From Candidatus Omnitrophota bacterium (GTDB taxonomy: Bacteria; Omnitrophota; Gorgyraeia; Gygaellales; Profunditerraquicolaceae): a DNA stretch of 64,000 nt. The notes beneath the pieces are model-generated. The model searched no databases. It saw only the letters and a program-made list of their open reading frames with translations, and was not told the DNA's origin. Positions within the stretch are counted from its first letter, which is position 1, and each line of letters opens with the position of its first letter. The stretch lies in the NCBI GenBank assembly GCA_016208765.1, contig JACQXK010000065.1, positions 64,962 through 128,961 on the forward strand. The letters run 5' to 3'. The position numbers were made by a program, and so were the translations under genes. Below, in pieces: positions 24,295-64,000 of the stretch.

Positions 24295-24327
24295 AAATAT
24301 TAGTTGTGAGTTTAATGGCGTTAATCT

Positions 24328-26295: not shown

Positions 26296-26298
26296 AAG

Positions 26299-26991: not shown

Positions 26992-27012
26992 TTTCTCAGA
27001 AAGGAATTTGTT

Positions 27013-40123: not shown

Positions 40124-40144
40124 AAATTCGGAACAATTTTTATT

Positions 40145-41584: not shown

Positions 41585-41598
41585 AAACGGAGAAAACA

Positions 41599-42822: not shown

Positions 42823-42833
42823 GTTTATTAATA

Positions 42834-43547
42834 ATGTATAAAAATAAAAAAATTCTAGCAGTTATTACGGCCCGGGGCGGGAGCAAGGGTATTCTTGGTA
42901 AGAATATAAAACCTTTATCAGGGAAGCCGCTTATTTACTGGACCCTGAGTGAAGCAAGAAAGAGTAAATATATTGATAAGATTATTGTTAGCACTGATGA
43001 TCCTGGTATCGCTGATATTTCAAGAAAACATGGAGCGGAAGTGCCTTTTTTGAGGCCCAAAAAACTTGCTCAGGATAAATCCAGCTCTATGGATGTTTTA
43101 TTTCATGCAATTGACTGGTTAAAGCAGAGAGGGTTGGTTTTTGATATTGTAGTGCTTTTGCAACCAACGTCTCCATTAAGGACCAAAACAGATATTGATG
43201 AGGCCTTAATGGCATTATTTAAAAGAAATGCTATGGCAATTGTATCTGTGGCAGAGGCATTTTATCCTCCGTTGTGGACAAACACTTTGCCTTCGGATGG
43301 AAATATGAAAAATTTCTTGCCAAAAGGGTTTGTTAATAAGAACCGTCAAAGCCTTCCAAAATATTACCAATTTAACGGAGCAATATATTTAGGGCTTATT
43401 GAATACATTAAGAAAAAGAGGTCTTTTTTAGGAGAAAGTACATATGCATATCTTATGCCAAAGGAGAGGTCAGTTGATATTGATGATACTATTGATTTTT
43501 TAATGGCAGAGATATTGTTAAAGAAGCAGAAAGATATTAGAAAATGA
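42834..43547 (+). CDS. neuA: acylneuraminate (nonulosonate) cytidylyltransferase, NeuA-like
   Basis: ILAVITARGGSKGILGKNI...GKPLIYWT...IVSTDD is the CMP-NeuAc synthetase signature. Confidence 0.8.
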   Translation: MYKNKKILAVITARGGSKGILGKNIKPLSGKPLIYWTLSEARKSKYIDKIIVSTDDPGIADISRKHGAEVPFLRPKKLAQDKSSSMDVLFHAIDWLKQRGLVFDIVVLLQPTSPLRTKTDIDEALMALFKRNAMAIVSVAEAFYPPLWTNTLPSDGNMKNFLPKGFVNKNRQSLPKYYQFNGAIYLGLIEYIKKKRSFLGESTYAYLMPKERSVDIDDTIDFLMAEILLKKQKDIRK

Positions 43548-45427
43548 GTAAAAAATTAATTTTTGTTGATAATATTGAGTTCATTAAAGACAATTCTTGC
43601 AGAATAGCTGAGATAATAAGAAATGAAAAAGCCTTAGTGTTGCCTTTATCGGATTTAGTCTTTTTGTATATGAAAAACAAGGGATTCAATTGTATTGATT
43701 TCCATGATTTTGAATATAAGGGCCTGTATGAAAATGTTTATTCTGTGGCAAGGGAATGGGGGACAGGTTGGTATAAACCAAGAAATAAAGACTTTTCTGA
43801 GGTAGATTCAGTTTCCCTGGGGACAATGATAGATTGGTTTATGATATATTTCTTTACTCATTTCTTGAGGATGCATCTTTTTTTAGGTGAGGTTATTAAG
43901 AACCTTAAGCCTAACGAAATAATATTCATTACAGCAAAAGAAGTGGATTATATGGAAGCGCCGTTAAAATTACGAAATGTTGACTGTAATTTATTGCAGC
44001 ATATGGTTAAAAGTATTGCAGGAACATTAAATCTTCACCTGTCTACCAAATTAATAAAGCTTACATCTCAAGAAAAATCTCAAAAACGCAAATTTAATTT
44101 TATCCGTCCAGTTTTTTACTATTTTAATGTTGTTTTATCAAGGTTGTTTAGTCTCTGCAACTTTATCTTACGTAAAAACAGAAAAATTATCTTTTACGAA
44201 GGTTTCCGGCACTTTTTTCCAGTAATGGCATCTAGTTTATTAAGAAATTTGGAGATAATCCATTTAGAAAAGGTAATTGGCTTATCTTTAATGCAGAAGT
44301 TGTATTCAAGAGGAATTAGAATAGATGTTTTAAATAAGAAAAATAGTCTCAATAAAATAAAAAAGCCTTGTTTTGATTTAATTAAAATTAAGGCAGAGCT
44401 TTCCGGTTATTTTATTTACAAGGGACAGGATTTTTTGGATTCTGTCTGGCCGAGGATTGAATATTTATTTAGATTTTTCCTGCCTGATTATGTTTATCCG
44501 GATTTGATAAACATAACGAAGTATATGCGGGCAAGCAATGCTAGTTGCTTAATCGTAGAAAATGATTCTACTTATGATGAGAAAATGCTTGTTATTGTTG
44601 CGAAAAAGTTTGGAGTTTATACGGTTGTAATACAAAATGGTGCGACTTGGATAGGTGAAGCTTTTAAAAGTAGAGAAATCTCTATTCATGATTTTTACCC
44701 TTTGATTGCAGATAAGTTTTTGGCTTATGGAGAATTGAATAAGAGTTGGTATAAAAATATGAATGTTGACCCAGAAAAAATTGTTGTTACTGGGGCTGCA
44801 AGGTTTGACGAGTATTATAAAACAAGAAATTCGTTTAAAATCTTAAAAAGAAAGAGCAATGCTGTCCTTGTCCTGTTAAATGATGTGACAGACCAGGACG
44901 TGGTAGTTTCAGAATATGATGTTACGGCCAAAATGTTTTATAAACATATAAATGAATTTATAAAAATAGCAAAAAATAGCCCAGACGTTAAATTTATTAT
45001 AAGGCCGCATCATAATGAGGGGTTCTGGAGAAGTATTTTTGAAGAAGAGATGCAAGGCTTGAATAATTTAGAAATTTCTCGTAAGGATACTTTGGTTCGG
45101 ATATTGCCTTTGGTGAATATAGTGGTTGGATATTATTCTACTGCTTTACTTGAAGCTTTAATCTTCAGGAAAATCGTTGTTAGTTTAGATACAGGAGAGT
45201 TTCTTAATCCATTTAAGCTATGGGATTATGATTTGTCAAAAAGGGTGGAGAACTTTACAGAATTAGAGGCGCAGATAAAGATTTATCTTTTTGATGAGCC
45301 GGAGCAAAGATTATTTATCAAGAAAATTGATGATAACTTGCGTTTGTTTAATTTTAATGATGACGGGAAAGCAGCAGAACGAATTGCGGGTTATTTAGGC
45401 AAAACTTTAATTAATAATTATGCATAG
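43544..45427 (+). CDS. hypothetical large protein, possible GT-B glycosyltransferase (TagF/KpsS/sialyltransferase-like)
   Basis: 627 aa. C-terminal region carries RPHHNEGFW followed about 40 aa later by a VVGYYSTALLEAL block, the layout of HP-motif GT-B enzymes. Confidence 0.3.
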   Translation: MSKKLIFVDNIEFIKDNSCRIAEIIRNEKALVLPLSDLVFLYMKNKGFNCIDFHDFEYKGLYENVYSVAREWGTGWYKPRNKDFSEVDSVSLGTMIDWFMIYFFTHFLRMHLFLGEVIKNLKPNEIIFITAKEVDYMEAPLKLRNVDCNLLQHMVKSIAGTLNLHLSTKLIKLTSQEKSQKRKFNFIRPVFYYFNVVLSRLFSLCNFILRKNRKIIFYEGFRHFFPVMASSLLRNLEIIHLEKVIGLSLMQKLYSRGIRIDVLNKKNSLNKIKKPCFDLIKIKAELSGYFIYKGQDFLDSVWPRIEYLFRFFLPDYVYPDLINITKYMRASNASCLIVENDSTYDEKMLVIVAKKFGVYTVVIQNGATWIGEAFKSREISIHDFYPLIADKFLAYGELNKSWYKNMNVDPEKIVVTGAARFDEYYKTRNSFKILKRKSNAVLVLLNDVTDQDVVVSEYDVTAKMFYKHINEFIKIAKNSPDVKFIIRPHHNEGFWRSIFEEEMQGLNNLEISRKDTLVRILPLVNIVVGYYSTALLEALIFRKIVVSLDTGEFLNPFKLWDYDLSKRVENFTELEAQIKIYLFDEPEQRLFIKKIDDNLRLFNFNDDGKAAERIAGYLGKTLINNYA

Positions 45428-46898
45428 AAAAAAACAAATTATAAAAGATACCTTTAAGTTGACTTTTGCGCGTTATTGCTCTCAGGGCATAGGGTTTTTT
45501 ACTTCTATTGCCATGCGCCGCTTTTTGGGGCCATTTTATATCGGCATCTGGAGCCTTTTAAAAATTACTATGGATTATAGCACGTATTTGTTGTTAGGGG
45601 TGAATGAGGGTTTAGGTTATAAGATTCCTGCATTGATGGGGCAGAATAAATCGGAAGAGGAAGAACGCATAAAAGACGCAGGATTTAGTTTTGTGTTTAT
45701 TATTTCCCTGGTTACTTCAATAATATTGCTTATTTCTGCATTTGTTCTGAGGAAAAATTACCCAATTGAGGTAATTATTGGGATTATTGTTTTATCTTTA
45801 TATATTTTGCTTGATAGAATATGCGGTTTTTATATGCTTCTTTTAAGGGCTAGGAAAAATTTTTCCATGTTGAGTAAGGCAATTATTTTTGATGCAGCTA
45901 CAAATCTAATTTTAATATTTCTTTTTGTGAGAAATTTTAAGATCTATGGCCTCTACATTGCAGTTATGGTTTTGTCGGTTTTAAATACCGTTTTTATCCA
46001 TGTTCAGGCAAAATACAAGGTTAATTTTGTATTAAATTTTAAAGGATTGGGCAATATTTTGAAGGTCGGATTTCCAATTACTGCCATGGGTTTTTTGGAT
46101 TGGATATTAGCTAGTGCCGACAGGATCATGATCGCTAAGATGATAGGCGTCACTTATGTTGGTTTTTATAGCGTTTCAATAATGACTAAGAGCTACATAA
46201 GCCAACTATCTAGTTTTGGGACTGTCATATACCCGCATCTTATTGAAGATTTTAGTAAAAAAGAAAACATCAATGATATTAAGAAGTATGCCATTGTCCC
46301 TCCTAAAGTTAATGCTTATACGTTACCTTTACTTTTAGGAATAATCTTTTTTTCTGCCCCTGTATTAATAAAATTAGTTTTACCTAAATTTTCTCCAGGT
46401 ATCCTGGCTATACAGATTTTATTGATTGATATGTTTTTCCGGGCTTGTTATCCGCAGGCAATTCATTTTATCGTGGCTTTAAAGAAGCAGGCTAGGATTC
46501 TTCCGATCATGGGGGTAGCAATAATTCTTAGCGTGGTTGGCAACTATTTAATGATTAAGAAAGGTTATGGGATTTATGGTGTTGCTGCTACAACTTCAAC
46601 GGTTTCATTCTTTAGCTTTGTAGCAATTCAGACGTATGCTCTAAAGCATTTTGCGCGGCCAAAGGAGATTGTGTTATTTTTTGTGGAAATCCTGGCTCCT
46701 TTTGTTTACACAATGATTTTTGTGCTGTTATTAAATAAAATAATCCAAATCCAAAATCTTTACGTTGGCACTTTAATTAAGATTTCAATATTATTTATTA
46801 TTTCACTGCCATTGTTATTTTATATAAACAAAAAGACCCAGGTATTAAACCTTGTGGTTGGAATAATTAAGGATAAGATTAAGCTTAAGTCAAAATGA
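45420..46898 (+). CDS. polysaccharide/oligosaccharide flippase (Wzx/MOP superfamily)-like
   Basis: 492 aa with about 12-14 TM helices and no soluble domains. Located in a glycan cluster. Confidence 0.55.
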   Translation: MHRKKQIIKDTFKLTFARYCSQGIGFFTSIAMRRFLGPFYIGIWSLLKITMDYSTYLLLGVNEGLGYKIPALMGQNKSEEEERIKDAGFSFVFIISLVTSIILLISAFVLRKNYPIEVIIGIIVLSLYILLDRICGFYMLLLRARKNFSMLSKAIIFDAATNLILIFLFVRNFKIYGLYIAVMVLSVLNTVFIHVQAKYKVNFVLNFKGLGNILKVGFPITAMGFLDWILASADRIMIAKMIGVTYVGFYSVSIMTKSYISQLSSFGTVIYPHLIEDFSKKENINDIKKYAIVPPKVNAYTLPLLLGIIFFSAPVLIKLVLPKFSPGILAIQILLIDMFFRACYPQAIHFIVALKKQARILPIMGVAIILSVVGNYLMIKKGYGIYGVAATTSTVSFFSFVAIQTYALKHFARPKEIVLFFVEILAPFVYTMIFVLLLNKIIQIQNLYVGTLIKISILFIISLPLLFYINKKTQVLNLVVGIIKDKIKLKSK

Positions 46899-48202
46899 AT
46901 CTAAATAAAGAAGAAATTATAAATAATAGCTTTGAGATTGTTTTTTGGTCCCATGGCCACAACGATGCGGAGCGATTCCTGCCGTTAATGGTCAATTTGA
47001 ATAAAAAGGGAGTGAGAACTTTGCTTTTTTTTCAGAATTTTGATTTTAGGGACGGGTTATCATTTACGAATCAGAAGATAGTTGATAGGTTTGGGTTAAA
47101 TGTTCTGGATTATTCTTATTTTCTAAAGACTAAATTGTATTTGTTGTTAGTGACTGTTTTTGTCCGGTTATTTAAGAAAATAATTAAAATAAAGTTTTTT
47201 TATAATAAATGCAATGGGCTTCGTTCAAAATTGCTAAAACTCAGTATTACAGAGGATTTTATCAGAAATGTAATTATGAAGTTCCACCCGAAAATAAGTT
47301 TTTTTGATAACATATCTTTACTTAAAAATACTGGTTATCCTTACGGCAGTTATTTTATTAAGAAGAATTCTGTTGAATTTGGGATCAAATGTTTTTCTAT
47401 TTGTCACGGAGGTACTGTCCATGTGCCTAAAATGTTGGAAAGCGAGCCAGTTTTTATTGATTTTGATAAAATGTATGAACCAAATTCTTACGAAGAACAG
47501 TGGGATAATTCCTTGCTGGTTTCTAAAGAAAAAAAAGCGGTGGCATTTGGCGACCCAAGATTTGATCAGAATTGGAAGGGCGTGTTGAAAGAAACATGTC
47601 AAAATTCACTCAGTTTTGAGATTGAAAAGGAAAATAATAACTATAAACTAAAGCTTTTATATTTATCTCCGAACCTCGAGCAATTTAATGAAGAAGACTT
47701 GAAATATAAAAATCTTTCTGATGTTGTTAGAATAGCTAAGGATACTGGAAATTCACTGTTGTTGATAAAACCTCACCCTCGTTATAGACAAGAAGAAAAA
47801 ATAAAAAAGTTGATGAAAAGAATTAATTTTAAAGATTACCATATTCTTGAAGACGAACCTTTGGTTTGTTATTTGGATTTCATTGACTTTATAATTACTA
47901 CTGGGACCTCTGCCCTACATGATGCTTTGCCAGAGAATTATGGTAAAATAATAATTTATGATACCTTTGGAGAAGGCATGGGCCTGAGAAATATTTTCAA
48001 AGAAAGTTTCATTAATTTTGATTCTTTTGAGAAAATGCGAGATTTTTTTAAAAAAAGAAACTATCTCATTGAATCCAATGTTGAAAACGCTCAGAAGGCA
48101 GAAGAATTTAGCAGAAGATGGGTTGCTGCAGGAGGAGAATTAAATACTGTAATAGAGCGAATTTCTGATGATTTATGTAAAGAGTTGGGGAAAATAAGCT
48201 AA
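46895..48202 (+). CDS. hypothetical protein, possible HP-motif GT-B glycosyltransferase (KpsS/TagF/polysialyltransferase-like)
   Basis: IKPHPRYRQEE followed by ITTGTSALHDAL, resembling the HP motif and acceptor-side block of CMP-ulosonic-acid transferases. Confidence 0.3.
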   Translation: MNLNKEEIINNSFEIVFWSHGHNDAERFLPLMVNLNKKGVRTLLFFQNFDFRDGLSFTNQKIVDRFGLNVLDYSYFLKTKLYLLLVTVFVRLFKKIIKIKFFYNKCNGLRSKLLKLSITEDFIRNVIMKFHPKISFFDNISLLKNTGYPYGSYFIKKNSVEFGIKCFSICHGGTVHVPKMLESEPVFIDFDKMYEPNSYEEQWDNSLLVSKEKKAVAFGDPRFDQNWKGVLKETCQNSLSFEIEKENNNYKLKLLYLSPNLEQFNEEDLKYKNLSDVVRIAKDTGNSLLLIKPHPRYRQEEKIKKLMKRINFKDYHILEDEPLVCYLDFIDFIITTGTSALHDALPENYGKIIIYDTFGEGMGLRNIFKESFINFDSFEKMRDFFKKRNYLIESNVENAQKAEEFSRRWVAAGGELNTVIERISDDLCKELGKIS

Positions 48203-48213
48203 AAGGAGAACTG

Positions 48214-48972
48214 ATGAATTTGAAAGAAAAGCTAAAGAATGGGCAAGTAAGTATTGGTTCTTGGTTAACTATTGGAGATGCTTCAGTAGCAGAAATAATG
48301 TCAAAATCTGGTTTTGACTGGTTGGCAGTGGATATGGAGCATTCAGCGATTACGCTTAAAGAGGCGCAAGATTTAATACGGATAATTGAATTGTGTGGAG
48401 TGGTTCCATTAGTGCGAGTTGGAGAAAATAACCCTAATTTGATAAAAAGAGTTATGGATGCCGGTGCGCATGGCGTAATTGTCCCAATGGTGAATAGCAA
48501 AGATGATGCTATCAAGGCGTTCAATTCTACAAAATACCCGCCTTTAGGAAAAAGGGGTGTAGGTCTGGCAAGAGCACAAAATTACGGTTTGGGTTTTGAG
48601 CGTTATAAGAAATGGGTAAATAAAGGCAGTATTGTAATTGTTCAAATTGAGCATATAGAAGCAGTAGAAAATCTGGAAGAGATATTTTCCGTTGATGGAC
48701 TTGATGGTTTTATAATCGGGCCATATGATCTTTCAGCTTCTTTGGGCACTCCGGGAGATTTTAAGAACAGTAAATTTGTCAGGGCAATTAATAGAATAAA
48801 AGAAGTTGCTAAAAAATATGAAATACCTGCTGGCTTGCACGTAATTGATCCAAGCGCTGTAAAATTAAATCATTCCATAAAGGAAGGTTATAAATTCATT
48901 GGGTTTAGTTTGGATGCGTTATTGTTAGGAACAAAATGTAAGCAGGAAATGGAAGCAATTAATTATAAATGA
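48214..48972 (+). CDS. HpcH/HpaI family class II (pyruvate) aldolase
   Basis: Strong family pattern GSWLTIG...GFDWLAVDMEHS...VRV...GVIVPMV...YPPLGKRGVG...VQIEH...DGFIIGPYDLSAS. Confidence 0.85.
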   Translation: MNLKEKLKNGQVSIGSWLTIGDASVAEIMSKSGFDWLAVDMEHSAITLKEAQDLIRIIELCGVVPLVRVGENNPNLIKRVMDAGAHGVIVPMVNSKDDAIKAFNSTKYPPLGKRGVGLARAQNYGLGFERYKKWVNKGSIVIVQIEHIEAVENLEEIFSVDGLDGFIIGPYDLSASLGTPGDFKNSKFVRAINRIKEVAKKYEIPAGLHVIDPSAVKLNHSIKEGYKFIGFSLDALLLGTKCKQEMEAINYK

Positions 48973-49465: not shown

Positions 49466-50986
49466 ATGGAAAACAAAGAATTTAAGGTTTTGTTGATTTA
49501 TCCTGCGCTTTTTATGCAAACTGGGTTGCCTTTAGGGGTATCCTCTTTGGTGGCGACGTTAAAGAAGAGGGGTATTGACTGTAAAGTATTTGATACAGTC
49601 TTCTATCAGGATTCCGGAGAGGTTGATGAAAACATTGAAAGGGCGGTAACATTGCATTCGGTAAAAGCGGTAGATTATAATTCAGTAGGAATGCTGCCCA
49701 ATAGCAGTTCTATGGAGGAAGATCTATCCCGAATTATGGCTGAATATAAACCGGATTTAGTCGGTTTAAGCGCCATAGAATGTATTTTTGAACGAGGGAT
49801 CAAATTAACTCGTTTGGCAAAGAAAATTAGCAACGTTCCAGTGATTGCCGGAGGAGTTTTTGCGACGCTTGCTCCAGATATTGTTATCCAGGAAAATTCA
49901 ATTGATTTTGTTTGCGTTGGAGAGGGGGAAGAGGTATTGGCGGACCTGTGCGAGCGTATAAAAAATAAGGAGAGTTATTTAGATGTAAGGGGTTTGTGGA
50001 TTAAAGATAGCGGGAAGATTCTTAAGAATAAGGCAATGCCATTGCAAACGCTTGATTCGGTTATTGAACCGGATTTCTTTGAATTTAACCCCAAGCTTTT
50101 TTACCGGCCTATGCAGGGGAATCTTTTTAAGACAATCCCAGTAGAATTTGCCCGTGGTTGCCCTTATCAGTGCACATATTGCGCAGAACCATCTTTGAGC
50201 AGGTTCTACAAAGCTTCTGGAGAGACGGGTTATTTTAGGACCAAGTCAATGAAAAGAGTTATTTCTGAAATTAAGAAAGGAATGGAGCTATATAAGCCAG
50301 AATTTTTCTATTTTGCTACCGAGACTTTTCTAGCGATGAGCGATGAAGCATTTGACGAATTTTATAATGGATATAAAAAAATTAAGCTTCCATTCTGGAT
50401 TCAAACCCGCATAGAGACTATTACTGATGAGCGGATTCAAAAGCTTAAAGAAGTGGGGCTCTTTTGGTTGACCATAGGAATAGAGCACGGTAATGAGGAT
50501 TTCCGGAAAAAATACCTGAAGCGGAATATGAAGAATGAAAGGATCTTTGAAGTAATGAAGATTCTTGATAGATGTGGCCAAGGAGTATCGTTAAATAGCA
50601 TTATTGGGTTTCCTTTTGAGACACGCGAGCTTATATTTGATACAATAATGCTTAATCGTAAACTATCCCAGATTAATAATCGTGTCAGATGTAATATTTC
50701 AATATTTACTCCTTTTAGAGGGTGTGAATTATATGATCTCTGTGTGTCTAACGGTCTTTTTGAGCCTGTCAAATACACGAACCATACAAATGTGAGTAAA
50801 GGAAGCCTGCTTAAATCAAAATTGCTCACGAATCAAGAGCTTAATGGGCTATTCAGGACATTTAATCTTTATGTGTATTTACCGGAAGAATATTTTGAGA
50901 GAATTAGATTAGCTCAGCAACCAACCGATGAAGGCAATAAAGAGTTTTTGTTTTTAAGTAGCAAGCTTAAAGAGTATATGTATTAA
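49466..50986 (+). CDS. B12-binding domain radical SAM enzyme
   Basis: B12-binding N-domain (KVLLIYPALF...) and CPYQCTYC (CxxxCxxC). Confidence 0.85.
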   Translation: MENKEFKVLLIYPALFMQTGLPLGVSSLVATLKKRGIDCKVFDTVFYQDSGEVDENIERAVTLHSVKAVDYNSVGMLPNSSSMEEDLSRIMAEYKPDLVGLSAIECIFERGIKLTRLAKKISNVPVIAGGVFATLAPDIVIQENSIDFVCVGEGEEVLADLCERIKNKESYLDVRGLWIKDSGKILKNKAMPLQTLDSVIEPDFFEFNPKLFYRPMQGNLFKTIPVEFARGCPYQCTYCAEPSLSRFYKASGETGYFRTKSMKRVISEIKKGMELYKPEFFYFATETFLAMSDEAFDEFYNGYKKIKLPFWIQTRIETITDERIQKLKEVGLFWLTIGIEHGNEDFRKKYLKRNMKNERIFEVMKILDRCGQGVSLNSIIGFPFETRELIFDTIMLNRKLSQINNRVRCNISIFTPFRGCELYDLCVSNGLFEPVKYTNHTNVSKGSLLKSKLLTNQELNGLFRTFNLYVYLPEEYFERIRLAQQPTDEGNKEFLFLSSKLKEYMY

Positions 50987-50998: not shown

Positions 50999-52648
50999 AT
51001 GAAAATAAAACAAAAAAATGAGCTTAGAATTTTAATGGTTTATCCTAATTTAGCTATGATGTTAGTTCCCTCAATAGCTATCGGATTATTCACAAAAATT
51101 CTAAAAAGAGAAGGATATGCGTTGGATTTATTTGACACCACGCATTATGTTTCTGATGAGAATTCAAGCCCGCAAAATCGCGTCAAATATCTTCAGGCGC
51201 GCAATTTTAAGGAGAAAGAAGACTTAGGAGTAAAAATTAAGACCGATTTACTCGGTGACTTTAGAAAAAAAGTTTTAGAATTTCAGCCGGACTTACTGCT
51301 TATGTCTGTTGTAGAAGATGCTTTTTTGCAAGCAGTTAAAATGTTGGAGGTTATTCAAGATTTACAGATACCACATTTAATGGGTGGCGTATTTCCTACG
51401 GCTTCAGCCCAGCGTTGCATGGATTTCTCTGTTATAAGAGCAGTTGGCTTAGGAGAAGGGGAAAATACGGTTGTGGAATTTGCAGAGGCAATCCGGCTTA
51501 ACAAAAGCCTTGAGGATGTTTCTGGAATATGGTTTAAGGATAGCCAGGGCAATATTCACAAAAATCATCAAGCGCCACTTGTGAATTTAGATATGTGTCG
51601 TCCTGATTTTAGCCTTTTTGAAGAGGCCAGATTTTTCCGTCCGATGGGAGGAAGAATATTTAAAACTATCCCTGTTGAAACATATAGAGGTTGTCCTTAC
51701 GCATGTTCTTATTGTAATTCTCCTATGCAGAAGAATTTCGCTTCAAAATACGGATTGGGAAATTTTTTGCGGCGTAAAAGTATGCAAGCGCTTCATTCAG
51801 AAATTTCCGAGCTTAAAGAAATATTTAGCCCGGAATTTTTCTATTTTATTGATGATAGTTTTCTTGCGCGCCCCCAGGAAGAGATAAACGAATTCTGTGA
51901 AATGTACAGTAAATTTAAATTGCCGTTTTGGTTTAATACACGTCCGGAGAATTGTACTCTTGAAAACATGCAGCAAGTTAAGGATGCTGGGTGCTATAGG
52001 ATTTCATTCGGGATAGAGTGTGGAAATGAAGAATTTCGTAAGAAGATTCTAAACCGTAATGTCAGTAATGCCTACCTGATTGATAAATTCAAACTTATTG
52101 CTGAAAGCGGTATTTCTTTTAGCATTAATCTTATTATCGGTTTTCCTGGGGAGACCCGCGCTTTAGTTATGGACACAGTTGAATTTGTTCGTTCTATTTA
52201 TGGATATGACACATTGACTGTTAGCATGTTTACTCCTTATCATGGTACTGTGTTAAGGGATGTAGCTATAAAAAATGGTTGGCTTGATAATGGTTCTATT
52301 ACTAAACACACAACAGCGCAATCTATGCTTAATATGTCTGCGCCATATTTAAGTGTTGATGAATTAGACGGTTTAATGCGCGTGCTTCCTTTATACTGTT
52401 ATTTTCCAAAAGATGAGTGGAAAAATATCTTTCCTGCTGAAAAAAATGATGAAGAGGGTAACAGAGTTCTTGGATATTATGGAGACATTTATAAAGAAAA
52501 ATTCTTAAAGTTTACCCAAGAAGAAATGAAAGATTTCGTTGTGGATGGTGCAGCTGGATGCAGGGTTAACCCAAAGGATGCTTTTCGGATTAGTCCTTCT
52601 AGGCTGAGTTTAAATGAAATAGAGATGCTAACTTTGAAAGGAATATAA
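50999..52648 (+). CDS. B12-binding domain radical SAM enzyme (paralog of the preceding gene)
   Basis: Same architecture, CPYACSYC. Clear paralogy to 49466-50986. Confidence 0.85.
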   Translation: MKIKQKNELRILMVYPNLAMMLVPSIAIGLFTKILKREGYALDLFDTTHYVSDENSSPQNRVKYLQARNFKEKEDLGVKIKTDLLGDFRKKVLEFQPDLLLMSVVEDAFLQAVKMLEVIQDLQIPHLMGGVFPTASAQRCMDFSVIRAVGLGEGENTVVEFAEAIRLNKSLEDVSGIWFKDSQGNIHKNHQAPLVNLDMCRPDFSLFEEARFFRPMGGRIFKTIPVETYRGCPYACSYCNSPMQKNFASKYGLGNFLRRKSMQALHSEISELKEIFSPEFFYFIDDSFLARPQEEINEFCEMYSKFKLPFWFNTRPENCTLENMQQVKDAGCYRISFGIECGNEEFRKKILNRNVSNAYLIDKFKLIAESGISFSINLIIGFPGETRALVMDTVEFVRSIYGYDTLTVSMFTPYHGTVLRDVAIKNGWLDNGSITKHTTAQSMLNMSAPYLSVDELDGLMRVLPLYCYFPKDEWKNIFPAEKNDEEGNRVLGYYGDIYKEKFLKFTQEEMKDFVVDGAAGCRVNPKDAFRISPSRLSLNEIEMLTLKGI

Positions 52649-52649: not shown

Positions 52650-53423
52650 ATGATTATTGGGATTATACCTGCGCGTATGTCCTCCAGCCGCTTCCCTGGA
52701 AAACCTTTGGCAAAAATACTCGGGATTCCCATGGTAGGACATGTGTATTTTAGAAGTAAAATGTGTAAAGCTCTTGACGAAGTTTATGTGGCTACTTGTG
52801 ATAAAGAAATATACGATTATATTTCTTCGGTAGGAGGCAAGGCAGTTATGACCTCGGATAAGCATCAAAGAGCTTCAGATAGAGCCGCTGAAGCAATGTT
52901 AAAAATTGAATTAGATACAGGAAAAAAGACTCAAATTGCAGTAATGATCCAGGGAGATGAGCCAATGCTTGTTCCTGAAATGATAACGAACGCGCTTAAG
53001 CCATTTTCAGAAAATAGCACGATTCAGGTTGTTAATCTCATGGCCGCCCTTTCTTCAAAAGAAGAGTGGAATGATCCTCACGAAATAAAAGTTGTTTGTG
53101 ATTTATCCGGTTTTGCTCTTTATTTTTCAAGAGAGCCGATACCGTCTTGTAAAAAGGACGGAATTAAAATAACGGCGTATAAACAGGTATGCATCATACC
53201 TTTTAAAAGAGATTTCTTGATTAAATTTAATGAACTCAAATCTACTCCTCTTGAACAGGTTGAGTCAGTTGATATGCTTAGGTTGCTGGAACATGGATAT
53301 AAAGTTAAGATGGTTTTCTCCGGGTTAAATACTTATAGTGTTGATACCTCTGATGATTTGAAGAAAGTAGAAAAACTAATTGAAAATGACGAGTTACTCA
53401 AGGCATATTTAAAATACAGATAA
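52650..53423 (+). CDS. CMP-ulosonic acid synthetase, KdsB-like cytidylyltransferase
   Basis: IIGIIPARMSSSRFPGKPL...GIPMVGHV is the KdsB/CMP-Kdo-synthetase N-terminal signature. 257 aa. Confidence 0.75.
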   Translation: MIIGIIPARMSSSRFPGKPLAKILGIPMVGHVYFRSKMCKALDEVYVATCDKEIYDYISSVGGKAVMTSDKHQRASDRAAEAMLKIELDTGKKTQIAVMIQGDEPMLVPEMITNALKPFSENSTIQVVNLMAALSSKEEWNDPHEIKVVCDLSGFALYFSREPIPSCKKDGIKITAYKQVCIIPFKRDFLIKFNELKSTPLEQVESVDMLRLLEHGYKVKMVFSGLNTYSVDTSDDLKKVEKLIENDELLKAYLKYR

Positions 53424-58405: not shown

Positions 58406-59356
58406 ATGAAATTAATTATACAAATTCCTTGTTACAATGAAGAAGGCTCGTTGCCGGTGGTAATTAGGGCTTTGCCCCGGAAGATAGAAGGTGTTGACAA
58501 GATTGAGATTTTAGTAATAAATGATGGCAGTGCCGATAATACTTCTAATGTGGCCAAAGGCCTTGGCGTTGAACATATCTTGGAGCTTCCTTATCATCGC
58601 GGTTTAGCTGAAACTTTTCGCGCAGGCCTTGAAGAGTCTTTGCGGTTAGGGGCTGATATTATTGTAAATACAGACGGAGATAATCAGTATCAGGCAGAAG
58701 ATATCTCTAAATTGGTTGAGCCGATTTTAAAGAAAAGGGCGGAAATTGTGATTGGGTGCAGGGATATATTTACAATTAAACATTTTTCGATTACAAAGAA
58801 AATCCTTCAGAATTTCGGAAGTTATATTGTTAGAAAATTCTCAAATACAAGCATTCCGGATACGACATCTGGCTTTCGCGCTTATTCAAGGGATGCTGCT
58901 TTAAGGATGAATGTGTTTTCTCGTTATACTTACACGCTTGAAACGATCATTCAGGCAGGCAGGAAAGAAATTCCTATTGCGTGCGTTAGTGTCAGGACAA
59001 ATGAAAAAATACGCGAATCAAGGCTGATTAAAAGCATTCCCTCATATATCAAAAGATCAATAGCAACAATTTTAAGGATTTATCTTATGTATGAGCCGAT
59101 GAGTTTTTTCGTCCGTCTCGGGTCTTTGTTTTTACTCGGAGCTTCTATGCTGGGAGTACGTTATTTATATTTCTTTGCTTTTGGGTCAAAACACGGCGGA
59201 CATATCCAGTCTCTCATTTTAGCTATAATTTTTTCTGTTTTAGGGATACAGCTTATTTTTATCGGTTTTTTAGCAGATATAATTGCTGCAAACAGAAAAC
59301 TTTCAGAAGAAATCTTATATAGGCAGAGAAAAGAGCACCTAAAACCTGTAAAATAG
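58406..59356 (+). CDS. membrane-anchored GT2 polyprenyl-phosphate glycosyltransferase (GtrB/ArnC-like)
   Basis: QIPCYNEE...VINDGSADNT GT-A core plus two C-terminal TM helices, the GtrB/ArnC architecture. Strong AAGGAGG SD. Confidence 0.8.
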   Translation: MKLIIQIPCYNEEGSLPVVIRALPRKIEGVDKIEILVINDGSADNTSNVAKGLGVEHILELPYHRGLAETFRAGLEESLRLGADIIVNTDGDNQYQAEDISKLVEPILKKRAEIVIGCRDIFTIKHFSITKKILQNFGSYIVRKFSNTSIPDTTSGFRAYSRDAALRMNVFSRYTYTLETIIQAGRKEIPIACVSVRTNEKIRESRLIKSIPSYIKRSIATILRIYLMYEPMSFFVRLGSLFLLGASMLGVRYLYFFAFGSKHGGHIQSLILAIIFSVLGIQLIFIGFLADIIAANRKLSEEILYRQRKEHLKPVK

Positions 59357-59380
59357 CAGATTTTGTTTTATATTATTCTT

Positions 59381-60481
59381 ATGAAAATACTCTATATAAC
59401 AAGGAAATTTTTTCCCTCAACAGGGGGAATGCAAACTCAAAGCGTAGAATTTTATCGATGTATTAAATCTCAAAATCAAGTAATGCTTATTGCTTGGGGC
59501 CATTCTCAGGTTTTTCTGCCTTTTTTTATTGTTTTTGCTTTTTTAAAGGCCTGCTTTTTATTAATTCAGAAAAAGGCTGACGTGATACAATTGGGCGATT
59601 TGGTGCTTTCTCCCGTAGGGGTATTGTTGAATAGGATATTTCATATTCCTGTTTTAAGTATTTCACATGGCAGGGATTCTGCCTTTGGAAATAAGCTATA
59701 TGATAAATTCGTGCTTAGTTCGGCTAAGAAACTGGATAGGATTATTTGCGTTAGTTCTAACATGAAAACAAGGCTAAAAGCAAGGGGAATAAATGAAGAG
59801 AAATTAACAGTTATTCCTAATGGGATTAACGCTGATAGCTTTAAGGATAAAATTGTTGATAGGCAGGAAGCACTGAATATCCTGCAAAATGAATTTGCTC
59901 TGCAACTAGAAGGTAAGAAAATAATATTTTCAATCTGCCGTCTGGTTCCTAAAAAGGGAATTAAAGAATTTATTGATAAGGTTTTTGTTGAAATAATCAC
60001 CAAGTGCCAGAATTCTGTTTTTCTTATTGCCGGTTGCGGCCCGGAAATGCCTTTGATTGCTGAATCCATTAAGAAAAATCATTGGGAGAACAAAATATTC
60101 TTATTAGGACAGATTGCATACAACTCTTTGGCATTCCATGCTTTATTTATGGCCGGAGATGTCTTTGTTATGCCTAATAGGCAAGTTAGCGGTGATGCAG
60201 AAGGATTTGGTATTGCTATCCTGGAAGCTTCTATGCATGGTAGGCCGGTGGTAGCTTTTGATGTGGATGGGATCTCTGAGGCAGTGATTGATGGCAAAAA
60301 CGGTATTTTGATAAAGGCTAATGACAATAGCTCTTTTGCAGAGAGCGTTTTTTTATTTTTATCGGATGAAAAGAAGAATAGGGATTTCGGGCAGATGGCA
60401 AGAAAATACACAGAAGAACATTTTAACTGGAATAGCATTGTTAAGCGTTATATGGAGCAGTATAAGATCTCAGTATCTTAG
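59381..60481 (+). CDS. GT4 family (group 1) glycosyltransferase
   Basis: EX7E region GDAEGFGIAILEASMHGRPVVAFDVDGISE. ATG at 59381 (MKILYITRKFFPSTGG). The track start at 59363 is TTG. Confidence 0.8.
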   Translation: MKILYITRKFFPSTGGMQTQSVEFYRCIKSQNQVMLIAWGHSQVFLPFFIVFAFLKACFLLIQKKADVIQLGDLVLSPVGVLLNRIFHIPVLSISHGRDSAFGNKLYDKFVLSSAKKLDRIICVSSNMKTRLKARGINEEKLTVIPNGINADSFKDKIVDRQEALNILQNEFALQLEGKKIIFSICRLVPKKGIKEFIDKVFVEIITKCQNSVFLIAGCGPEMPLIAESIKKNHWENKIFLLGQIAYNSLAFHALFMAGDVFVMPNRQVSGDAEGFGIAILEASMHGRPVVAFDVDGISEAVIDGKNGILIKANDNSSFAESVFLFLSDEKKNRDFGQMARKYTEEHFNWNSIVKRYMEQYKISVS

Positions 60482-60499: not shown

Positions 60500-61639
60500 A
60501 TGAATATTTTTTCAATAACCATGACTTTAGTAAGCCCTCCTTATGATGATGGGCCAAAGAATTTGGTTTTTGGGATTGCTAAAAGATTAAAGAAGCATAA
60601 TTTTTTCTTTGTTTCCTTTTTGTTTAAAAAGTTTAAAGTTGAAGATAACATTAAGTTTATAGGTAGCCCTTTTCAAAATAGCCCTAGCCTGAGAATGTCT
60701 GTTATGCAGCAGGTTTACATATTTTTTGTTATCCTCTTAAACCTGAGAAGAATTGAAGTTTTTCAATTTTTCTTTACTCCTAAAGAGTATTTTGCGCGTT
60801 TCTTTAAAATTATGCTTGAAAAAGCAAATAAACGTTCTGTTCAGGTAATTTCTTCAACACATTCTCTTTACGCAGGAACGAATAAAACAAATATTAAAGA
60901 TTTGTTTTTCTCTGATTCTGTAATTGCGCTTTCAGATTTCTCAAAACAAAGGTTAGAGAGCGATGGAGTTGGCAATGTCGTTAGGATTTATCCAGGGGTA
61001 GATTTGGATAGATTTGATAAAAGAAGAATAAAGAATGATTTTTTTGTGAAAGATAGGATTCCTGGTGTAAAATACATAATTTACCCTGGTGCTTATAGGG
61101 TTTTAAATTTATCGTATTCTTTTAAGGATTTGGTTAGTATTATTCTTGAAGTTAAGAAGGTTTTCGGAAATGTAAAGTTTGTGCTTGCCTGTAAGGTCAG
61201 GGAAAAGAAAGATTCTTTCCTTGAAAAAGAGTTTAAAGAGACCGCAAGGCAGTTTGGGGTAGATAAGGAAATTCATTATTTAAACATTGTTGATGATATG
61301 CCGGCTTTATTAAATAGTTGTGATATGGTAATTTTGCCTTCTTACAAGCATTTGTTTGGGATATTGGAGCTCCCTTTGGTTTTATTAGAGGCTTCGGCAC
61401 TTGAAAAGCCTGTTATTTATACAGCAGCTTCTCCTTTAGATGAGCTGAGGGATGCAGGGATCGGTGTTGGGCTTAAAGACAGCTCCTGCCAGTCATACGC
61501 AAATACTATAATTGATTTATTAAAAGATAAAAACAAAAGTGATAACATTGGATTTACTTCAAAATCTGCGATAATTAAGAATTTTAACCTTGAAAAAATG
61601 TCAGCAGAATTTGATGCTGTTTATAATTCTTTGCGATAA
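60500..61639 (+). CDS. GT-B (GT4-like) glycosyltransferase
   Basis: C-terminal ILPSY...LELPLVLLEASALEKPVIY block typical of GT4-like donor-binding domains. N-terminal domain is divergent. Confidence 0.6.
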   Translation: MNIFSITMTLVSPPYDDGPKNLVFGIAKRLKKHNFFFVSFLFKKFKVEDNIKFIGSPFQNSPSLRMSVMQQVYIFFVILLNLRRIEVFQFFFTPKEYFARFFKIMLEKANKRSVQVISSTHSLYAGTNKTNIKDLFFSDSVIALSDFSKQRLESDGVGNVVRIYPGVDLDRFDKRRIKNDFFVKDRIPGVKYIIYPGAYRVLNLSYSFKDLVSIILEVKKVFGNVKFVLACKVREKKDSFLEKEFKETARQFGVDKEIHYLNIVDDMPALLNSCDMVILPSYKHLFGILELPLVLLEASALEKPVIYTAASPLDELRDAGIGVGLKDSSCQSYANTIIDLLKDKNKSDNIGFTSKSAIIKNFNLEKMSAEFDAVYNSLR

Positions 61640-63136
61640 ATGAATAATTTAGTTAGAACTGTGGTTCATAAAAACAATAAAATACCCGAAGGCATAATGT
61701 CTGCCTTAAGCCGGATGGCACAGGTTTCTGGCGTAAAAAATCCTATAGTCGCACTTCCTGACCTTCATTTTAAGGGCTCATATCATACTCCCACTGGAGT
61801 AGTGGTTTTGACAAAGAATACAATTGTGCCGAAGTTTGTTAATCCAAACTGTGGAATGACTTTTATTGTAACCCCATTTTTTGAAAAAGACTTCAATAAT
61901 GAAAAAATAGATTTAATTTTTTCTTATTTAAGAAAACATATTTCTGTTTCCGCCTGGAGTGATCCTGTAATCTGTGTTGAAGATTTAAAAGATATTGTTA
62001 AAAACGGTGCTTCCTGGGCTATCTCGCGGCAGGGCCTTGATAAAAATGATCTTAATAATTTTGAAAATAAAGGATCGTTATTTTTAGATGAAGAAATTTC
62101 CTCAGAAGAGATATTATCTTTTATTCCTGATCCTTGTCAAAAAGCCGGTCTTCGTTCCATGGGGGTTCTGGGGTTTGGGAACCATTTTATAGAGATGCAG
62201 AAAGCAGAAGAAATTCTTCATAATGATATCGCAGAGAAGTTTGGAATCAAAAAAGGGCAGATTTGTTTTATGATGCACGGTGATTCCAGGGAATTTGGCC
62301 GTTCAATCTTTGATTTTTATTCAAAAAAAGCTAAAAAGTTTTTTGGTTTGCAGCAGGTTTATAAGAAAATTCATTTTTCACTTCTTGCTTCTAAATATAT
62401 CCCTGTTTGGTCAAAGAAGGCTTTGCGTGGTATTAATTATCACGGCAATCGTTTGAAATCTTTGCTATACTGGAAATTTCCGTTTTTAAACAAAATTGAA
62501 GCTGCAGAGTTTTCTTTTATCCTAGCTGATTCTTTGGAAGGCCGGGCCTATAGAATAAGCACTTATGCAGCATTGAATTATGCCTATGCAAACCGGACAT
62601 ATATGGCAGGCATAATCAGAGACGCTTTAAGAAATGCTTTTGATAGAAGTGATGCCCAAATTAAAATATTGTTTGACGGAAGCCACGATAGCCTGCAGCA
62701 GGAATTGGTTGATGGGGTTAAATATTGGGTGCATAGGAATGGGGCCAGCCGTGCTTACCCGCCTAAATCTTATCCGGATCATGGTATTTTTAGCAAAACC
62801 GGTCAGCCAGTTTTGCTCCCCAGTTGCTTAGGTAATTTTTCATTTTTATGTGCAGCGAATATCGGTTGTGCGCAAACTTATTATTCTTCAAGTCATGGCA
62901 CAGGCAGGTTGGTTGACAGGGGAGAAGCGCGTTATACATTTAAAGATGAAGACGTGTTAAGGGAAGTTGCTTCCAGTGGCATGAAAGTTTACGATTATGG
63001 CAAAGGCTGTGTTTCTGAGGAATCGCCGCGGGCATTCAAGAATGTTAATGATGTTCTTGAGGCGATAGAGGAAAACAATATTGCAGCCAGCGTTGTAAAG
63101 TTAAAGCCCGTAGCGGTTTTGAAAGGGTGGATATGA
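61640..63136 (+). CDS. RtcB-family (RNA 3'-phosphate ligase-like) protein, divergent
   Basis: RtcB motifs: ALPDLHFKG, VNPNCGM (Cys ligand), GFGNHFIEMQ (NHF), SSSHGTGR (HGxGR). 498 aa. Confidence 0.7.
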   Translation: MNNLVRTVVHKNNKIPEGIMSALSRMAQVSGVKNPIVALPDLHFKGSYHTPTGVVVLTKNTIVPKFVNPNCGMTFIVTPFFEKDFNNEKIDLIFSYLRKHISVSAWSDPVICVEDLKDIVKNGASWAISRQGLDKNDLNNFENKGSLFLDEEISSEEILSFIPDPCQKAGLRSMGVLGFGNHFIEMQKAEEILHNDIAEKFGIKKGQICFMMHGDSREFGRSIFDFYSKKAKKFFGLQQVYKKIHFSLLASKYIPVWSKKALRGINYHGNRLKSLLYWKFPFLNKIEAAEFSFILADSLEGRAYRISTYAALNYAYANRTYMAGIIRDALRNAFDRSDAQIKILFDGSHDSLQQELVDGVKYWVHRNGASRAYPPKSYPDHGIFSKTGQPVLLPSCLGNFSFLCAANIGCAQTYYSSSHGTGRLVDRGEARYTFKDEDVLREVASSGMKVYDYGKGCVSEESPRAFKNVNDVLEAIEENNIAASVVKLKPVAVLKGWI

Positions 63137-63756
63137 TTATTGTTTTTTCTGGTATTGACGGCTCGGGAAAAACAACTTACGCTGACAGGGTATTAAGCTA
63201 TCTGAAAAGCCAAAAAATAAATTTTAAATATCACCATATTGTAAAGGACTCGTTTTATAATTTTATTCTACATAATGTAATAGGAAGAATATCAAGTTCT
63301 AGCCAACGTTCTATTGAACAGGGTTTAAGAAAACCTGAAAAAAAACTAAAGCATCTTATTTTAAGAAGTATAAAGAAAATATTATTATTAACTAACCTTT
63401 TGTGTTTTAATATAATGTTTTGGAGGTGCCGTAGTTCAATAAAAAGAAATATAATCTGTGACCGTTATTTTTTTGACGATATCGTACAGCTTGAATATTT
63501 AAATCTGGCATCAAGAAGCTTCATTTCTTTTTACAAAAACTTGATTATTGAGCCAGATATAATTTTTTATTTTAAAATAGACCCAACAGTCGCTTTCAAA
63601 AGAAAGATGGAATACGAAATAGGTTATTATTTAGAAAAATGCAAAATTTATGATGATTGGGCCAAGCGTCTTCCAAATGTAACTGAAATTAGTGAAAACG
63701 CTATTGAAGAAAATACAAAAATAATTCAAGAAAGATTAAGGCGGTTAATTAAATGA
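63133..63756 (+). CDS. thymidylate-kinase-like P-loop nucleoside/nucleotide kinase
   Basis: MIIVFSGIDGSGKTTYA matches the Tmk-type GxDGxGKTT Walker A. ATGA overlap with the RtcB-like gene. Confidence 0.55.
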   Translation: MIIVFSGIDGSGKTTYADRVLSYLKSQKINFKYHHIVKDSFYNFILHNVIGRISSSSQRSIEQGLRKPEKKLKHLILRSIKKILLLTNLLCFNIMFWRCRSSIKRNIICDRYFFDDIVQLEYLNLASRSFISFYKNLIIEPDIIFYFKIDPTVAFKRKMEYEIGYYLEKCKIYDDWAKRLPNVTEISENAIEENTKIIQERLRRLIK

Positions 63757-64000
63757 AGAATATCCCTAAGGTATTGTTGGTACAACCATCATCTCGGTCA
63801 AAGACTCCTCGGCCTCCGTTAGGCTTAATGTATTTATCTTCTTTTCTGACAAAAAACGAGATAGACAATGAAATTATTGATATTAAAGGAAAAGAGGATA
63901 TTTCTGTTATTCAAGAGAGAATCTTAAATAAAATTAAGTCTATCAGTTCTGATATTATCGGAATTACTTGCCTCGTAACAGAGATTGAAGTAGTTGAGGA
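63753..64000 (+). CDS. B12-binding domain radical SAM enzyme, 3' partial (runs off the window)
   Basis: N-terminus KVLLVQPSS...PPLGLMYLSSFL parallels the N-termini of the rSAM genes at 36385 and 49466. CxxxCxxC motif not yet reached. Confidence 0.6.
   Translation, partial: MKNIPKVLLVQPSSRSKTPRPPLGLMYLSSFLTKNEIDNEIIDIKGKEDISVIQERILNKIKSISSDIIGITCLVTEIEVVE

Follow-up and report, generated by a model that had tools for sequence, protein, structure and literature searches.

An RtcB-like gene and a kinase gene within a glycan cassette

The window analyzed here is a stretch of 64,000 nucleotides (nt) from contig JACQXK010000065.1 (assembly GCA_016208765.1) of a Candidatus Omnitrophota bacterium. 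Near its end lie two adjacent plus-strand genes, one for a 498-amino-acid (aa) RtcB-family protein (positions 61640 to 63136) and one for a 207-aa P-loop kinase of the thymidylate kinase (Tmk) fold (63133 to 63756); proteins identical to the pair are present in NCBI under the name "Candidatus Omnitrophica bacterium." They stand within a cassette of glycan-assembly genes on the same strand. The first cassette gene, at 58406 to 59356, encodes a family 2 glycosyltransferase (GT2) of the polyprenyl-phosphate-sugar synthase type (AglJ/PpgS/ArnC-like; Glycos_transf_2, E = 2e-21; hydrophobic C terminus), whose best NCBIfam resemblances, AglJ, PpgS, and ArnC, all fall below the cutoffs; a GT2 gene holds the same position in loci L001, L003, L086, L093, L094, L098, L099, and L100. 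Two family 4 glycosyltransferase (GT4) genes follow. The distal one (59363 to 60481, plus strand; Pfam Glycos_transf_1 and Glyco_transf_4) is listed from a TTG codon; translation might instead begin at an in-frame ATG (MKILYI...) some 18 nt further on. Its orthologs, at 33 to 50% identity, occupy the same position in the loci of the RtcB clade described below. The other (60500 to 61639, plus strand; Glycos_transf_1) is a core cassette member, and every core locus with GT4-bearing upstream sequence has a full-length ortholog of it (37 to 44% identity) as the gene just before RtcB.

The junctions between these genes are tight. The TAA stop codon of the adjacent GT4 gene (61637 to 61639) abuts the ATG of the RtcB-like gene at 61640 with no gap, the TGA of the RtcB-like gene (63134 to 63136) overlaps the kinase ATG (63133 to 63135) as ATGA, and a second ATGA joins the kinase TGA (63754 to 63756) to the ATG of the next gene (63753 to 63755). 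Only the 5' end of that plus-strand gene (63753 to 64000) falls within the window, and the contig of locus L089, 100% identical over 1,289 nt, shows that it encodes a 492-aa B12-binding radical SAM protein (B12-rSAM) and is followed by a gene for LPG_synthase_TM, a flippase-like protein. Judged from their junctions, the four consecutive genes (GT4, RtcB-like, kinase, and rSAM) are predicted to be translationally coupled. A first-pass annotation of the DNA had described the ATGA overlap of the RtcB homolog and the kinase (63133 to 63136), GT4 genes upstream, and a B12-rSAM gene downstream, and all of these are found, along with the GT2 gene on the upstream side.

The product of the RtcB-like gene matches the Pfam family RtcB (PF01139) along its entire length (E = 5e-80, 270 bits, profile positions 2 to 426 of 426), and the RtcB structures of Thermus, human, and Pyrococcus align to it with E values of about 1e-46 to 1e-48 at about 25 to 30% identity. 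An AlphaFold model computed from 28 clade sequences (pLDDT 90.7, pTM 0.92) resembles human and Pyrococcus RtcB in a Foldseek comparison (TM score 0.75, E = 1e-34). The NCBIfam RtcB equivalogs are not reached (NF007153, 132.7 bits versus a cutoff of 407; TIGR03073, 107.9 bits versus 271.8). Cys71, the motif G-N181-H182-F183, and the motif H419-G-T-G-R423 are all present, so that the RtcB homolog with a Cys ligand, NHF, and HGxGR that had been read from the letters is borne out by the full-length family match, the fold, and the motifs themselves. The term "motif-complete" that went with it claims too much: in an alignment of the metal and GMP-His ligands the catalytic His and Cys are kept, and the Asp that serves as a ligand of metal M2 (Pyrococcus Asp95) is replaced by Asn68.

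The kinase starts at the ATG at 63133, and every homolog opens with MII.FSG. It passes the Pfam family Thymidylate_kin (PF02223; 42.9 bits versus a cutoff of 27) and does not reach the dTMP-kinase equivalog TIGR00041 (42.4 bits versus 83.25). Its P-loop, GIDGSGKTT (G7-x-D-G-x-G-K13-T-T), the D110-R111-Y112 of its DRYFxD motif, and the lid residue Arg157 vary little or not at all among 25 family members, and the DRY Arg and the lid align to Aquifex Tmk (R90 and lid). The only strong PDB matches of the kinase profile are thymidylate kinases (Aquifex Tmk, E = 5e-20). In profile-PDB searches, residues 1 to 32 and 101 to 204 align to Tmk, and residues 33 to 100, which we take to correspond to the dTMP-binding part of Tmk, are unalignable to any Tmk. 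The S-T-x-x-Y-Q that follows DRY in Tmk (as in DRFvlSTiaYQ) is replaced in the kinase family by DRYFYD(D/E)IVQ, in which Asp115-(D/E)-I-V-Q is invariant. A structural model (pLDDT 87.6) contains a 30-residue helix at residues 71 to 100 and compares to Tmk structures with TM scores of 0.6 to 0.73 and a root mean square deviation of 4 to 5 Å; the helix was considered as a membrane anchor, and its hydrophobic-moment values are unremarkable. Both the alignments and the model point to a Tmk-fold enzyme whose acceptor site differs and which is probably active. The first-pass label, a Tmk-like P-loop kinase, is therefore apt on the strength of the Thymidylate_kin match and the retained P-loop, DRY, and lid motifs; of the Tmk features that were looked for, the P-loop, DRY, and lid Arg are retained, whereas the dTMP segment and S-T-x-x-Y-Q are not.

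Conserved neighborhoods and an exchangeable partner

A search of 5.8 billion proteins placed the RtcB-like protein in a separate RtcB clade of 57 clusters at 31 to 62% identity to it, below which identity falls to about 28 to 30% for canonical RtcBs such as that of Fervidobacterium. The clusters are mostly unnamed or labeled Omnitrophota, and the clade spans Omnitrophota, other bacteria, and archaea. We read the annotated contigs of clade homologs at 56, 54, 54, 48, 40, 37, 34, and 32% identity, and for a tally we called open reading frames (ORFs) in all fetched loci and labeled them with profiles built from annotated examples. The kinase lies immediately downstream of RtcB in 11 of 12 dereplicated core-clade loci, and a glycan-labeled gene (glycosyltransferase, flippase, or GT-C) lies within five genes, likewise in 11 of 12. 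Among about 76 control loci with canonical RtcB (L010 to L085), the kinase occurs in none and a glycan-labeled neighbor in one or two. RtcA, RtcR, archease, PrfH, and Ro/Y RNA partners were found neither in the 12 clade neighborhoods nor in the scanned parts of the window.

The order typical of Omnitrophota is GT2, GT4, B12-rSAM, GT4, RtcB, Tmk-like kinase, LPG_synthase_TM, PMT-like GT-C, and GT2, after which these loci carry formyltransferase/deacetylase or carbamoyltransferase genes. Two contigs are archaeal, one (L004) with L37e and LSM genes and one (L005) with the pair beside an archaeal ribosomal operon, in a metagenome-assembled genome (MAG) labeled Methanosarcinales. The archaeal orders are GT4-GT4-RtcB-Tmk-like and NTP_transferase-UDP-glucose dehydrogenase-RtcB-Tmk-like, and both contigs continue with a convergent Wzx flippase gene and more glycan genes. 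In L005 (11681 to 14655; CAYMBN010000005.1), the RtcB-kinase pair is adjoined by one Capsule_synth (KpsC/KpsS-like) and two Phosphodiest (PF01663) genes; elsewhere, such enzymes go with phosphodiester chemistry and with the lipid-anchored linkers of capsules. The two most divergent clade members have no Tmk-like gene yet stand among Wzx, GT4, PMT_2, and B12-rSAM genes. At the locus of one of these two (P0055), a kinase of the APH fold (choline-kinase-like) is encoded three genes upstream: here, the kinase fold has been swapped and RtcB kept. The P0055 cluster also encodes a Kdo-transferase/methyltransferase fusion, two rSAM-SPASM proteins, and three B12-rSAM proteins. Two relatives at 28 to 31% identity, which share the HxK motif discussed below, are found between LPG_synthase_TM and GT-C genes (L008) and between GT2 and GT9 heptosyltransferase genes (L009). 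The first-pass annotation had staked its proposal on such a neighborhood survey, and the association with glycan genes and the kinase proves to be conserved over Omnitrophota, other bacteria, and archaea.

These neighborhoods bear on a rival explanation of the locus, namely that the RtcB-like protein is an ordinary RNA/DNA 3'-phosphate ligase of repair or tRNA splicing that hitch-hikes in a glycan operon, next to a polynucleotide or nucleotide kinase; in one variant, the genes might be coexpressed under envelope stress. The full-length, high-scoring RtcB match agrees with this explanation, and all known RtcB substrates are nucleic acids (PMC10630183). What it leaves unexplained is the synteny between bacteria and archaea at 37 to 62% identity and the translational coupling with the GT4 and the kinase; moreover, canonical RtcB loci lack these neighbors, and the scanned parts of the window hold no RNA-repair partner.

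A second line of evidence comes from cassettes in which the kinase has another partner. One kinase homolog, at 31% identity, stands in the order GT2, GT4, GT4, NTP_transf_5, kinase, and LPG_synthase_TM. A metagenome scan with a kinase-specific pattern gave 80 loci, and across the dereplicated kinase-family set (n = 57) the neighbor of the kinase is RtcB in 9 loci, an NTP_transf_5-like protein in 22, and both in none; the Pfam cutoff for PF14907 was passed by 7 of the 10 NTP_transf_5 candidates tested. Locus L100 repeats the order of the window with NTP_transf_5 in the RtcB slot (GT2, unknown, B12-rSAM, GT4, NTP_transf_5, kinase, and LPG_synthase_TM). For the GT4 upstream of RtcB, the best full-length matches outside the clade are GT4s flanking NTP_transf_5-kinase pairs (25 to 29% identity, E values of 1e-31 to 1e-46). 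On these comparisons, the GT4 partners of the RtcB and NTP_transf_5 cassettes are predicted orthologs, and the swap of RtcB for NTP_transf_5 reads as a non-orthologous displacement within one cassette. Because NTP_transf_5 fills the RtcB slot in an orthologous cassette and the two never occur together, the simplest interpretation is that in its own cassette the RtcB-like protein would do the job of the nucleotidyltransferase. A hitch-hiking ligase does not account for this mutually exclusive replacement.

Some soil metagenomes carry what may be a fusion of NTP_transf_5 and the kinase, about 508 aa in length (L139, 1234 to 2760; similar in L134, L156, L161, and L172). Its N terminus is NTP_transf_5-like, with a GDIDLLV motif, and scores 27 bits against the cutoff of 31.2, and our own small profile gave no detection; its C terminus is a P-loop kinase related to the cassette kinase family. 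The fusion, if real, would be a Rosetta-stone link between the nucleotidyltransferase and kinase activities.

Kept and remodeled residues, and a proposed reaction

We compared residues between 53 clade members and 43 canonical RtcB sequences, taking their roles from work on the canonical enzyme, in which the M1 ligands, the M2 ligands Asp95, Cys98, and His203, and the guanine contacts Glu206 and Lys480 are assigned (PMC9745838) and the strand with the 5'-OH is contacted by Arg190, Gln194, Arg238, His242, and Asn202 (PMC8051266). The GMP nucleophile, His419 of the HGxGR motif (Pyrococcus His404), is invariant (53/53), and so are the M1 ligands Cys71, His213, and His349 (Pyrococcus Cys98, His234, and His329) and the guanine contacts Glu185 and Lys495 (Pyrococcus Glu206 and Lys480). 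Within GNHF, Asn181 (the Asn202 equivalent) and His182 (the M2 ligand His203) are invariant or nearly so, as are the equivalents of R408 and R412.

Other positions are changed throughout the clade. Asp95, a ligand of the metal holding the beta and gamma phosphates of GTP (PMC9745838), lies three positions before the Cys and is Asn in 47 of the 53 clade members and S, A, F, or V in the others; in the window protein, Asn68 occupies this position in a loop two residues shorter. The HxGYG motif becomes HxK, its Gly being exchanged for an invariant Lys (Lys45) with a two-residue insertion besides, and HRKGA becomes HRNGA. Two acidic residues appear next to metal histidines, Asp215 in place of Gly236 (51/53) and Asp350 in place of Asn330 (50/53). 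As for the strand contacts, 37 of the 43 canonical sequences have Arg at position 190 and none of the clade members does, V, I, M, and A dominating there (Ala169 in the window); Gln194 is Ser in 49 of 53 (Ser173 in the window); and His242 is Gln or Arg. The Arg238 equivalent, Arg217, is still Arg in 47 of 53. The clade proteins also carry an insertion of about 45 residues, the segment from 224 to 298 having 74 residues versus 30 in canonical RtcBs. This insertion (residues ~225 to 295) is helical in the model, with a pLDDT of 58 to 78 and the conserved motifs DFYSKKAKKL.GLQQ.YK..HY and N..LNR.KS..Y.K, and may serve to dock the protein to the kinase, the GT4, or the membrane.

The residue patterns thus argue for strong selection on the half of the active site that handles the nucleotide and for remodeling of one metal site and of the residues that bind the polynucleotide. 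Because the M2 Asp and the strand contacts of the RNA ligases were examined and found changed, we file the protein, on present alignments, as a member of the RtcB superfamily and not as an RNA ligase. An ordinary ligase hitch-hiking in the operon would agree with the intact His nucleophile, M1 ligands, guanine contacts, Asn202, and (mostly) Arg238, and its binding of nucleic acid would suit the net positive charge of the clade proteins given below; the loss of the Arg190 and Gln194 contacts and of the M2 Asp adds to the synteny, coupling, and displacement that it does not explain, and we judge it to be quite unlikely. The related option in the first-pass annotation, an RNA-repair module captured into the operon, fares poorly on the same evidence: the strand contacts are lost, NTP_transf_5 stands in the RtcB slot, and no RNA-repair partner was found in the scanned window.

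The replacement of Asp95 across the clade has also to be weighed as a sign of catalytic impairment, since this residue is the metal ligand for the beta and gamma phosphates of GTP (PMC9745838). In that case, the RtcB-like protein would be structural or regulatory, for example, a scaffold that senses GTP and holds the GT4 and the kinase. We consider this highly improbable: the other catalytic residues are invariant over 31 to 62% divergence, which implies selection on catalysis, the functional analog in sister cassettes is an enzyme (a nucleotidyltransferase), and the new, conserved acidic residues beside two metal histidines, Asp215 and Asp350, could re-form the M2 site.

With modest confidence, we favor the reading that the RtcB-like gene and the kinase gene form the middle of a conserved glycan-decoration cassette in which the kinase would make a phosphomonoester and the RtcB-like enzyme would activate it with GMP. 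The support for this reading comes from comparative genomics and sequence analysis. The cassette is envisaged in the order polyprenyl-phosphate GT2, GT4, (B12-rSAM), GT4, RtcB-like, Tmk-fold kinase, (B12-rSAM), LPG_synthase_TM, and GT-C. RtcB chemistry proceeds from an enzyme-His-GMP intermediate to transfer of GMP onto a terminal phosphate and then to attack by a hydroxyl, with release of GMP. Since a dedicated kinase is the obligate partner of the RtcB-like protein, it is the most likely source of the phosphomonoester: with ATP, it would phosphorylate a non-nucleotide X, which might be a small alcohol, a sugar head group, or a hydroxyl of a lipid-linked glycan. The RtcB-like enzyme would be guanylylated by GTP at His419 by way of the Cys71/His213/His349 metal site and would move GMP to the phosphate of X, giving X-pp-G (GDP-X) by the chemistry that forms RNA-3'pp5'G. 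A glycan hydroxyl would then attack the activated phosphate to leave a phosphodiester decoration, a step that the RtcB-like enzyme itself could carry out in the manner of RNA sealing; alternatively, GDP-X would be passed as a donor to the co-conserved GT4. The resemblance of the GT2 to polyprenyl-phosphate sugar synthases, together with the flippase-like and GT-C genes, suggests a lipid-linked sugar as the acceptor, and the flippase-like and GT-C proteins would flip the product and transfer it on the outer side of the membrane.

Asn202 and Arg238 act in the sealing step of canonical RtcB (PMC8051266), and the retention of their equivalents (that of Arg238 in most members) makes us lean slightly toward a real ligation step. 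The stronger form of the proposal, which is possible and which we put forward tentatively, is that the clade represents the first RtcB-family enzyme acting on a non-nucleic-acid substrate, a GTP-dependent His-GMP ligase joining a kinase-made phosphomonoester to a hydroxyl of a polyprenyl-phosphate-linked glycan, with NTP_transf_5 as its functional analog. The phosphodiester would then arise by the RNA-sealing mechanism and not by the usual NDP-sugar, CDP-alcohol, or phosphotransferase routes. Of the two options that the first-pass annotation had left side by side, the reuse of these folds for non-nucleic-acid phosphoester chemistry is the one that gains support, from the conserved glycan and kinase synteny and the kept His and Cys.

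A different role for the kinase would alter the picture. If it were a true nucleoside monophosphate (NMP) kinase that recycles an NMP (GMP, CMP, UMP, or dTMP) set free in the phosphotransfer reactions of the cluster or feeds an RmlA-dependent dTDP-sugar branch, the substrate of the RtcB-like protein or NTP_transf_5 would be phosphorylated by some other enzyme. RmlA and RmlB genes at 18283 to 20922 and two CMP-sugar synthetase genes in the window are consistent with such a role, as is the fact that both RtcB sealing and the transfer of NDP head groups release an NMP, so that recycling fits either partner. Set against it are the unalignable segment 33 to 100, the replacement of S-T-x-x-Y-Q by the invariant D-(D/E)-I-V-Q, the score below the dTMP-kinase equivalog cutoff, and the APH-fold small-molecule kinase that takes its place at one RtcB locus; to our knowledge, moreover, dedicated NMP kinases are no feature of glycan operons. 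We regard an NMP kinase as unlikely.

Several observations weigh against phosphate activation on a glycan as the function of the pair. The kinase might be an NMP kinase, a role with which its Tmk P-loop, DRY Arg, and lid Arg agree, as do its closest matches in sequence and fold, all of them thymidylate kinases. The median net charge is +9 in the clade proteins and -1 in the canonical ones, a more basic character that would also suit nucleic-acid binding. Besides Asp95, all of the residues for guanylylation of an RNA 3'-phosphate are present, with Arg238 kept at the frequency given above, which makes activity on RNA or DNA conceivable, and the change from Asp to Asn could weaken GTP binding at M2 instead of marking a new substrate. 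The wider group of RtcB proteins with HxK is heterogeneous, including at the Asp position, and one of its members, at 31% identity, is encoded in a non-glycan setting between a histidine kinase/response regulator pair and an HlyD gene (L007, 9917 to 11320; JAJVHT010000088.1, from the MAG "bacterium Bin_13"). The HxK group makes up 64 of the 150 best representatives at 50% identity in an exhaustive profile search (P0127 to P0189), and several of its members retain an Asp three residues before the Cys. Because the group is this large and heterogeneous, our claims are limited to the core clade.

The wider glycan region and comparison with known systems

The first 18 kb of the window hold housekeeping genes (PilMNOQ, RNase G, Obg, ProB/ProA, Rpe, phosphoglucomutase, a PlsC-like protein, ribosomal protein S1, and TyrRS). 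In the remainder, which starts near 18.3 kb and runs to the window end, all Pfam-scanned ORFs, those at 20923 to 28544 excepted, are glycan-assembly genes or genes without a family match, and all are on the plus strand. This region opens with the Pfam-identified RmlA and RmlB(-like) genes (18283 to 20922) already mentioned, and it also encodes a Wzx flippase, an HpcH aldolase, methyltransferases, and PMT_2 and YfhO GT-C proteins. A nonulosonic-acid module at 37933 to 43547 comprises NeuB, a UDP-GlcNAc 2-epimerase, an amidotransferase-like HisF-HisH fusion (479 aa), a 407-aa ORF, and a CMP-sugar synthetase. A second CMP-sugar synthetase gene (52650 to 53423) comes after the HpcH aldolase gene (48214 to 48972), and the two suggest a second 2-keto-3-deoxy acid sugar. 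At least four B12-rSAM genes are present (36385 to 37692, 49466 to 50986, 50999 to 52648, and 63753 to 64000 and beyond), and the cassettes of relatives carry them as well; their NCBIfam resemblances, which include BchE, HpnJ, and P-methyltransferase families, are all far below the cutoffs, and the role of these proteins may be C- or P-methylation of sugars. Four ORFs of 472, 407, 627, and 435 aa (28549 to 29967, 41599 to 42822, 43544 to 45427, and 46895 to 48202) have no Pfam match at E ≤ 1e-4.

The window has 58 ORFs that reach 150 aa or more, of which 57 are on the plus strand, and GC skew is positive in all 2-kb bins; G+C content is about 0.40 among the housekeeping genes and drops to about 0.32 to 0.36 among the glycan genes. 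The window yielded no rtcA, rtcR, archease, tRNA, or Rfam RNA, with the ORFs at 20923 to 28544 left out of the Pfam scan. Two further ideas were dropped: a role as a defense system, for which PADLOC gave nothing beyond a weak P-loop match, and an RNA element, for which the window has no Rfam or tRNA matches.

The gene pair is real, looks ordinary, and belongs to a well-conserved glycan cassette that is previously undescribed. RtcB is regarded as a dedicated nucleic-acid end joiner, in tRNA splicing, XBP1/HAC1 splicing, and RNA repair. A 2023 review gives RNA and DNA as its sole substrates (PMC10630183), and in a search of the full-text literature we found no paper that ties RtcB to glycan biosynthesis and none on this kinase family, an Omnitrophota genome paper included. 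If our reading is true, the activation of phosphates by His-GMP chemistry would extend to carbohydrates or lipids, a first functional handle would be gained on NTP_transf_5 (PF14907) and on the Tmk-fold "glycan kinase," both of them unannotated families, and Omnitrophota, DPANN-like archaea, and other uncultured lineages would seem to have an unrecognized route to decorations of the phosphodiester or GDP-activated kind. A match to PF01139 alone should not be taken to mean "tRNA-splicing ligase."

Compared to the canonical RtcB ligases (P. horikoshii, human RTCB, and E. coli; PF01139), the clade shares the fold at a TM score of 0.75 and about 25 to 30% identity, along with the His-GMP nucleophile, the Cys/His/His M1 site, GNHF, the guanine-contacting Glu and Lys, and HGxGR. 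It differs in the M2 Asp, HxGYG, HRKGA, and Arg190/Gln194, in the added helical insertion of about 45 residues, and in its setting, which is glycan assembly with a Tmk-fold kinase in place of RtcA/RtcR, archease, PrfH, or Ro contexts. A precedent for the proposed step is DNA capping by Myxococcus xanthus RtcB3 and E. coli RtcB, in which GMP is placed onto a terminal phosphate to give a stable pp-G (PMC10630183); indeed, RtcB paralogs may stop at capping on DNA 3'- or 5'-phosphates (PMC10630183). The acceptors there are nucleic acids and there is no glycan context, and we draw the likeness from the description in the review, not from sequence.

For the pairing of kinase and nucleotidyltransferase, partial parallels exist elsewhere. 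In the biosynthesis of pseudomycoidin, the kinase PsmK phosphorylates a hydroxyl, and PsmN, an "uncharacterized NTP transferase," is needed to add a hexose, giving a phosphatase-resistant product (PMC6993621); this system differs in its peptide substrate and its HPr-kinase fold, and PsmN is likened by description and not by membership in PF14907. A gene annotated as thymidylate kinase and a PF14907 gene flank PEP mutase in phosphonate cluster GCF 540 (PMC8942020), a likeness by annotation only. The NTP_transf_5 (PF14907)-kinase pairs described above share with the RtcB cassettes the kinase family, the orthologous GT4 and LPG_synthase_TM neighbors, and the slot itself, while NTP_transf_5 is a Pol-beta-type nucleotidyltransferase unlike the RtcB fold. 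With Tmk (PF02223, TIGR00041), the cassette kinase has in common GxDGxGKTT, DR(Y/F), the lid Arg, and the fold (TM scores of 0.6 to 0.73); it is set apart by its unalignable center with the 30-residue helix, its subequivalog score, and its glycan-cassette setting.

The logic of the whole cassette would match that of the Kennedy and Lic pathways (LicA choline kinase, LicC cytidylyltransferase, and LicD transferase; TarD/TagF; and PntC for phosphonates), in which a kinase and then an NDP-X intermediate lead to a phosphodiester on a glycan. Both would combine a kinase with a nucleotidyltransferase and both are encoded in glycan clusters, a likeness of gene context and not of homology: the folds of both enzymes differ, and the nucleotide here would be GTP, used through a covalent His-GMP. 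One clade relative has an APH-fold (LicA-like) kinase for the Tmk-fold one. Two features of a module of kinase and NMP-transferase are seen in the cassette, namely, the adjacency of the two genes in a glycan cluster and the exchange of the NMP-transferase for an analogous enzyme.

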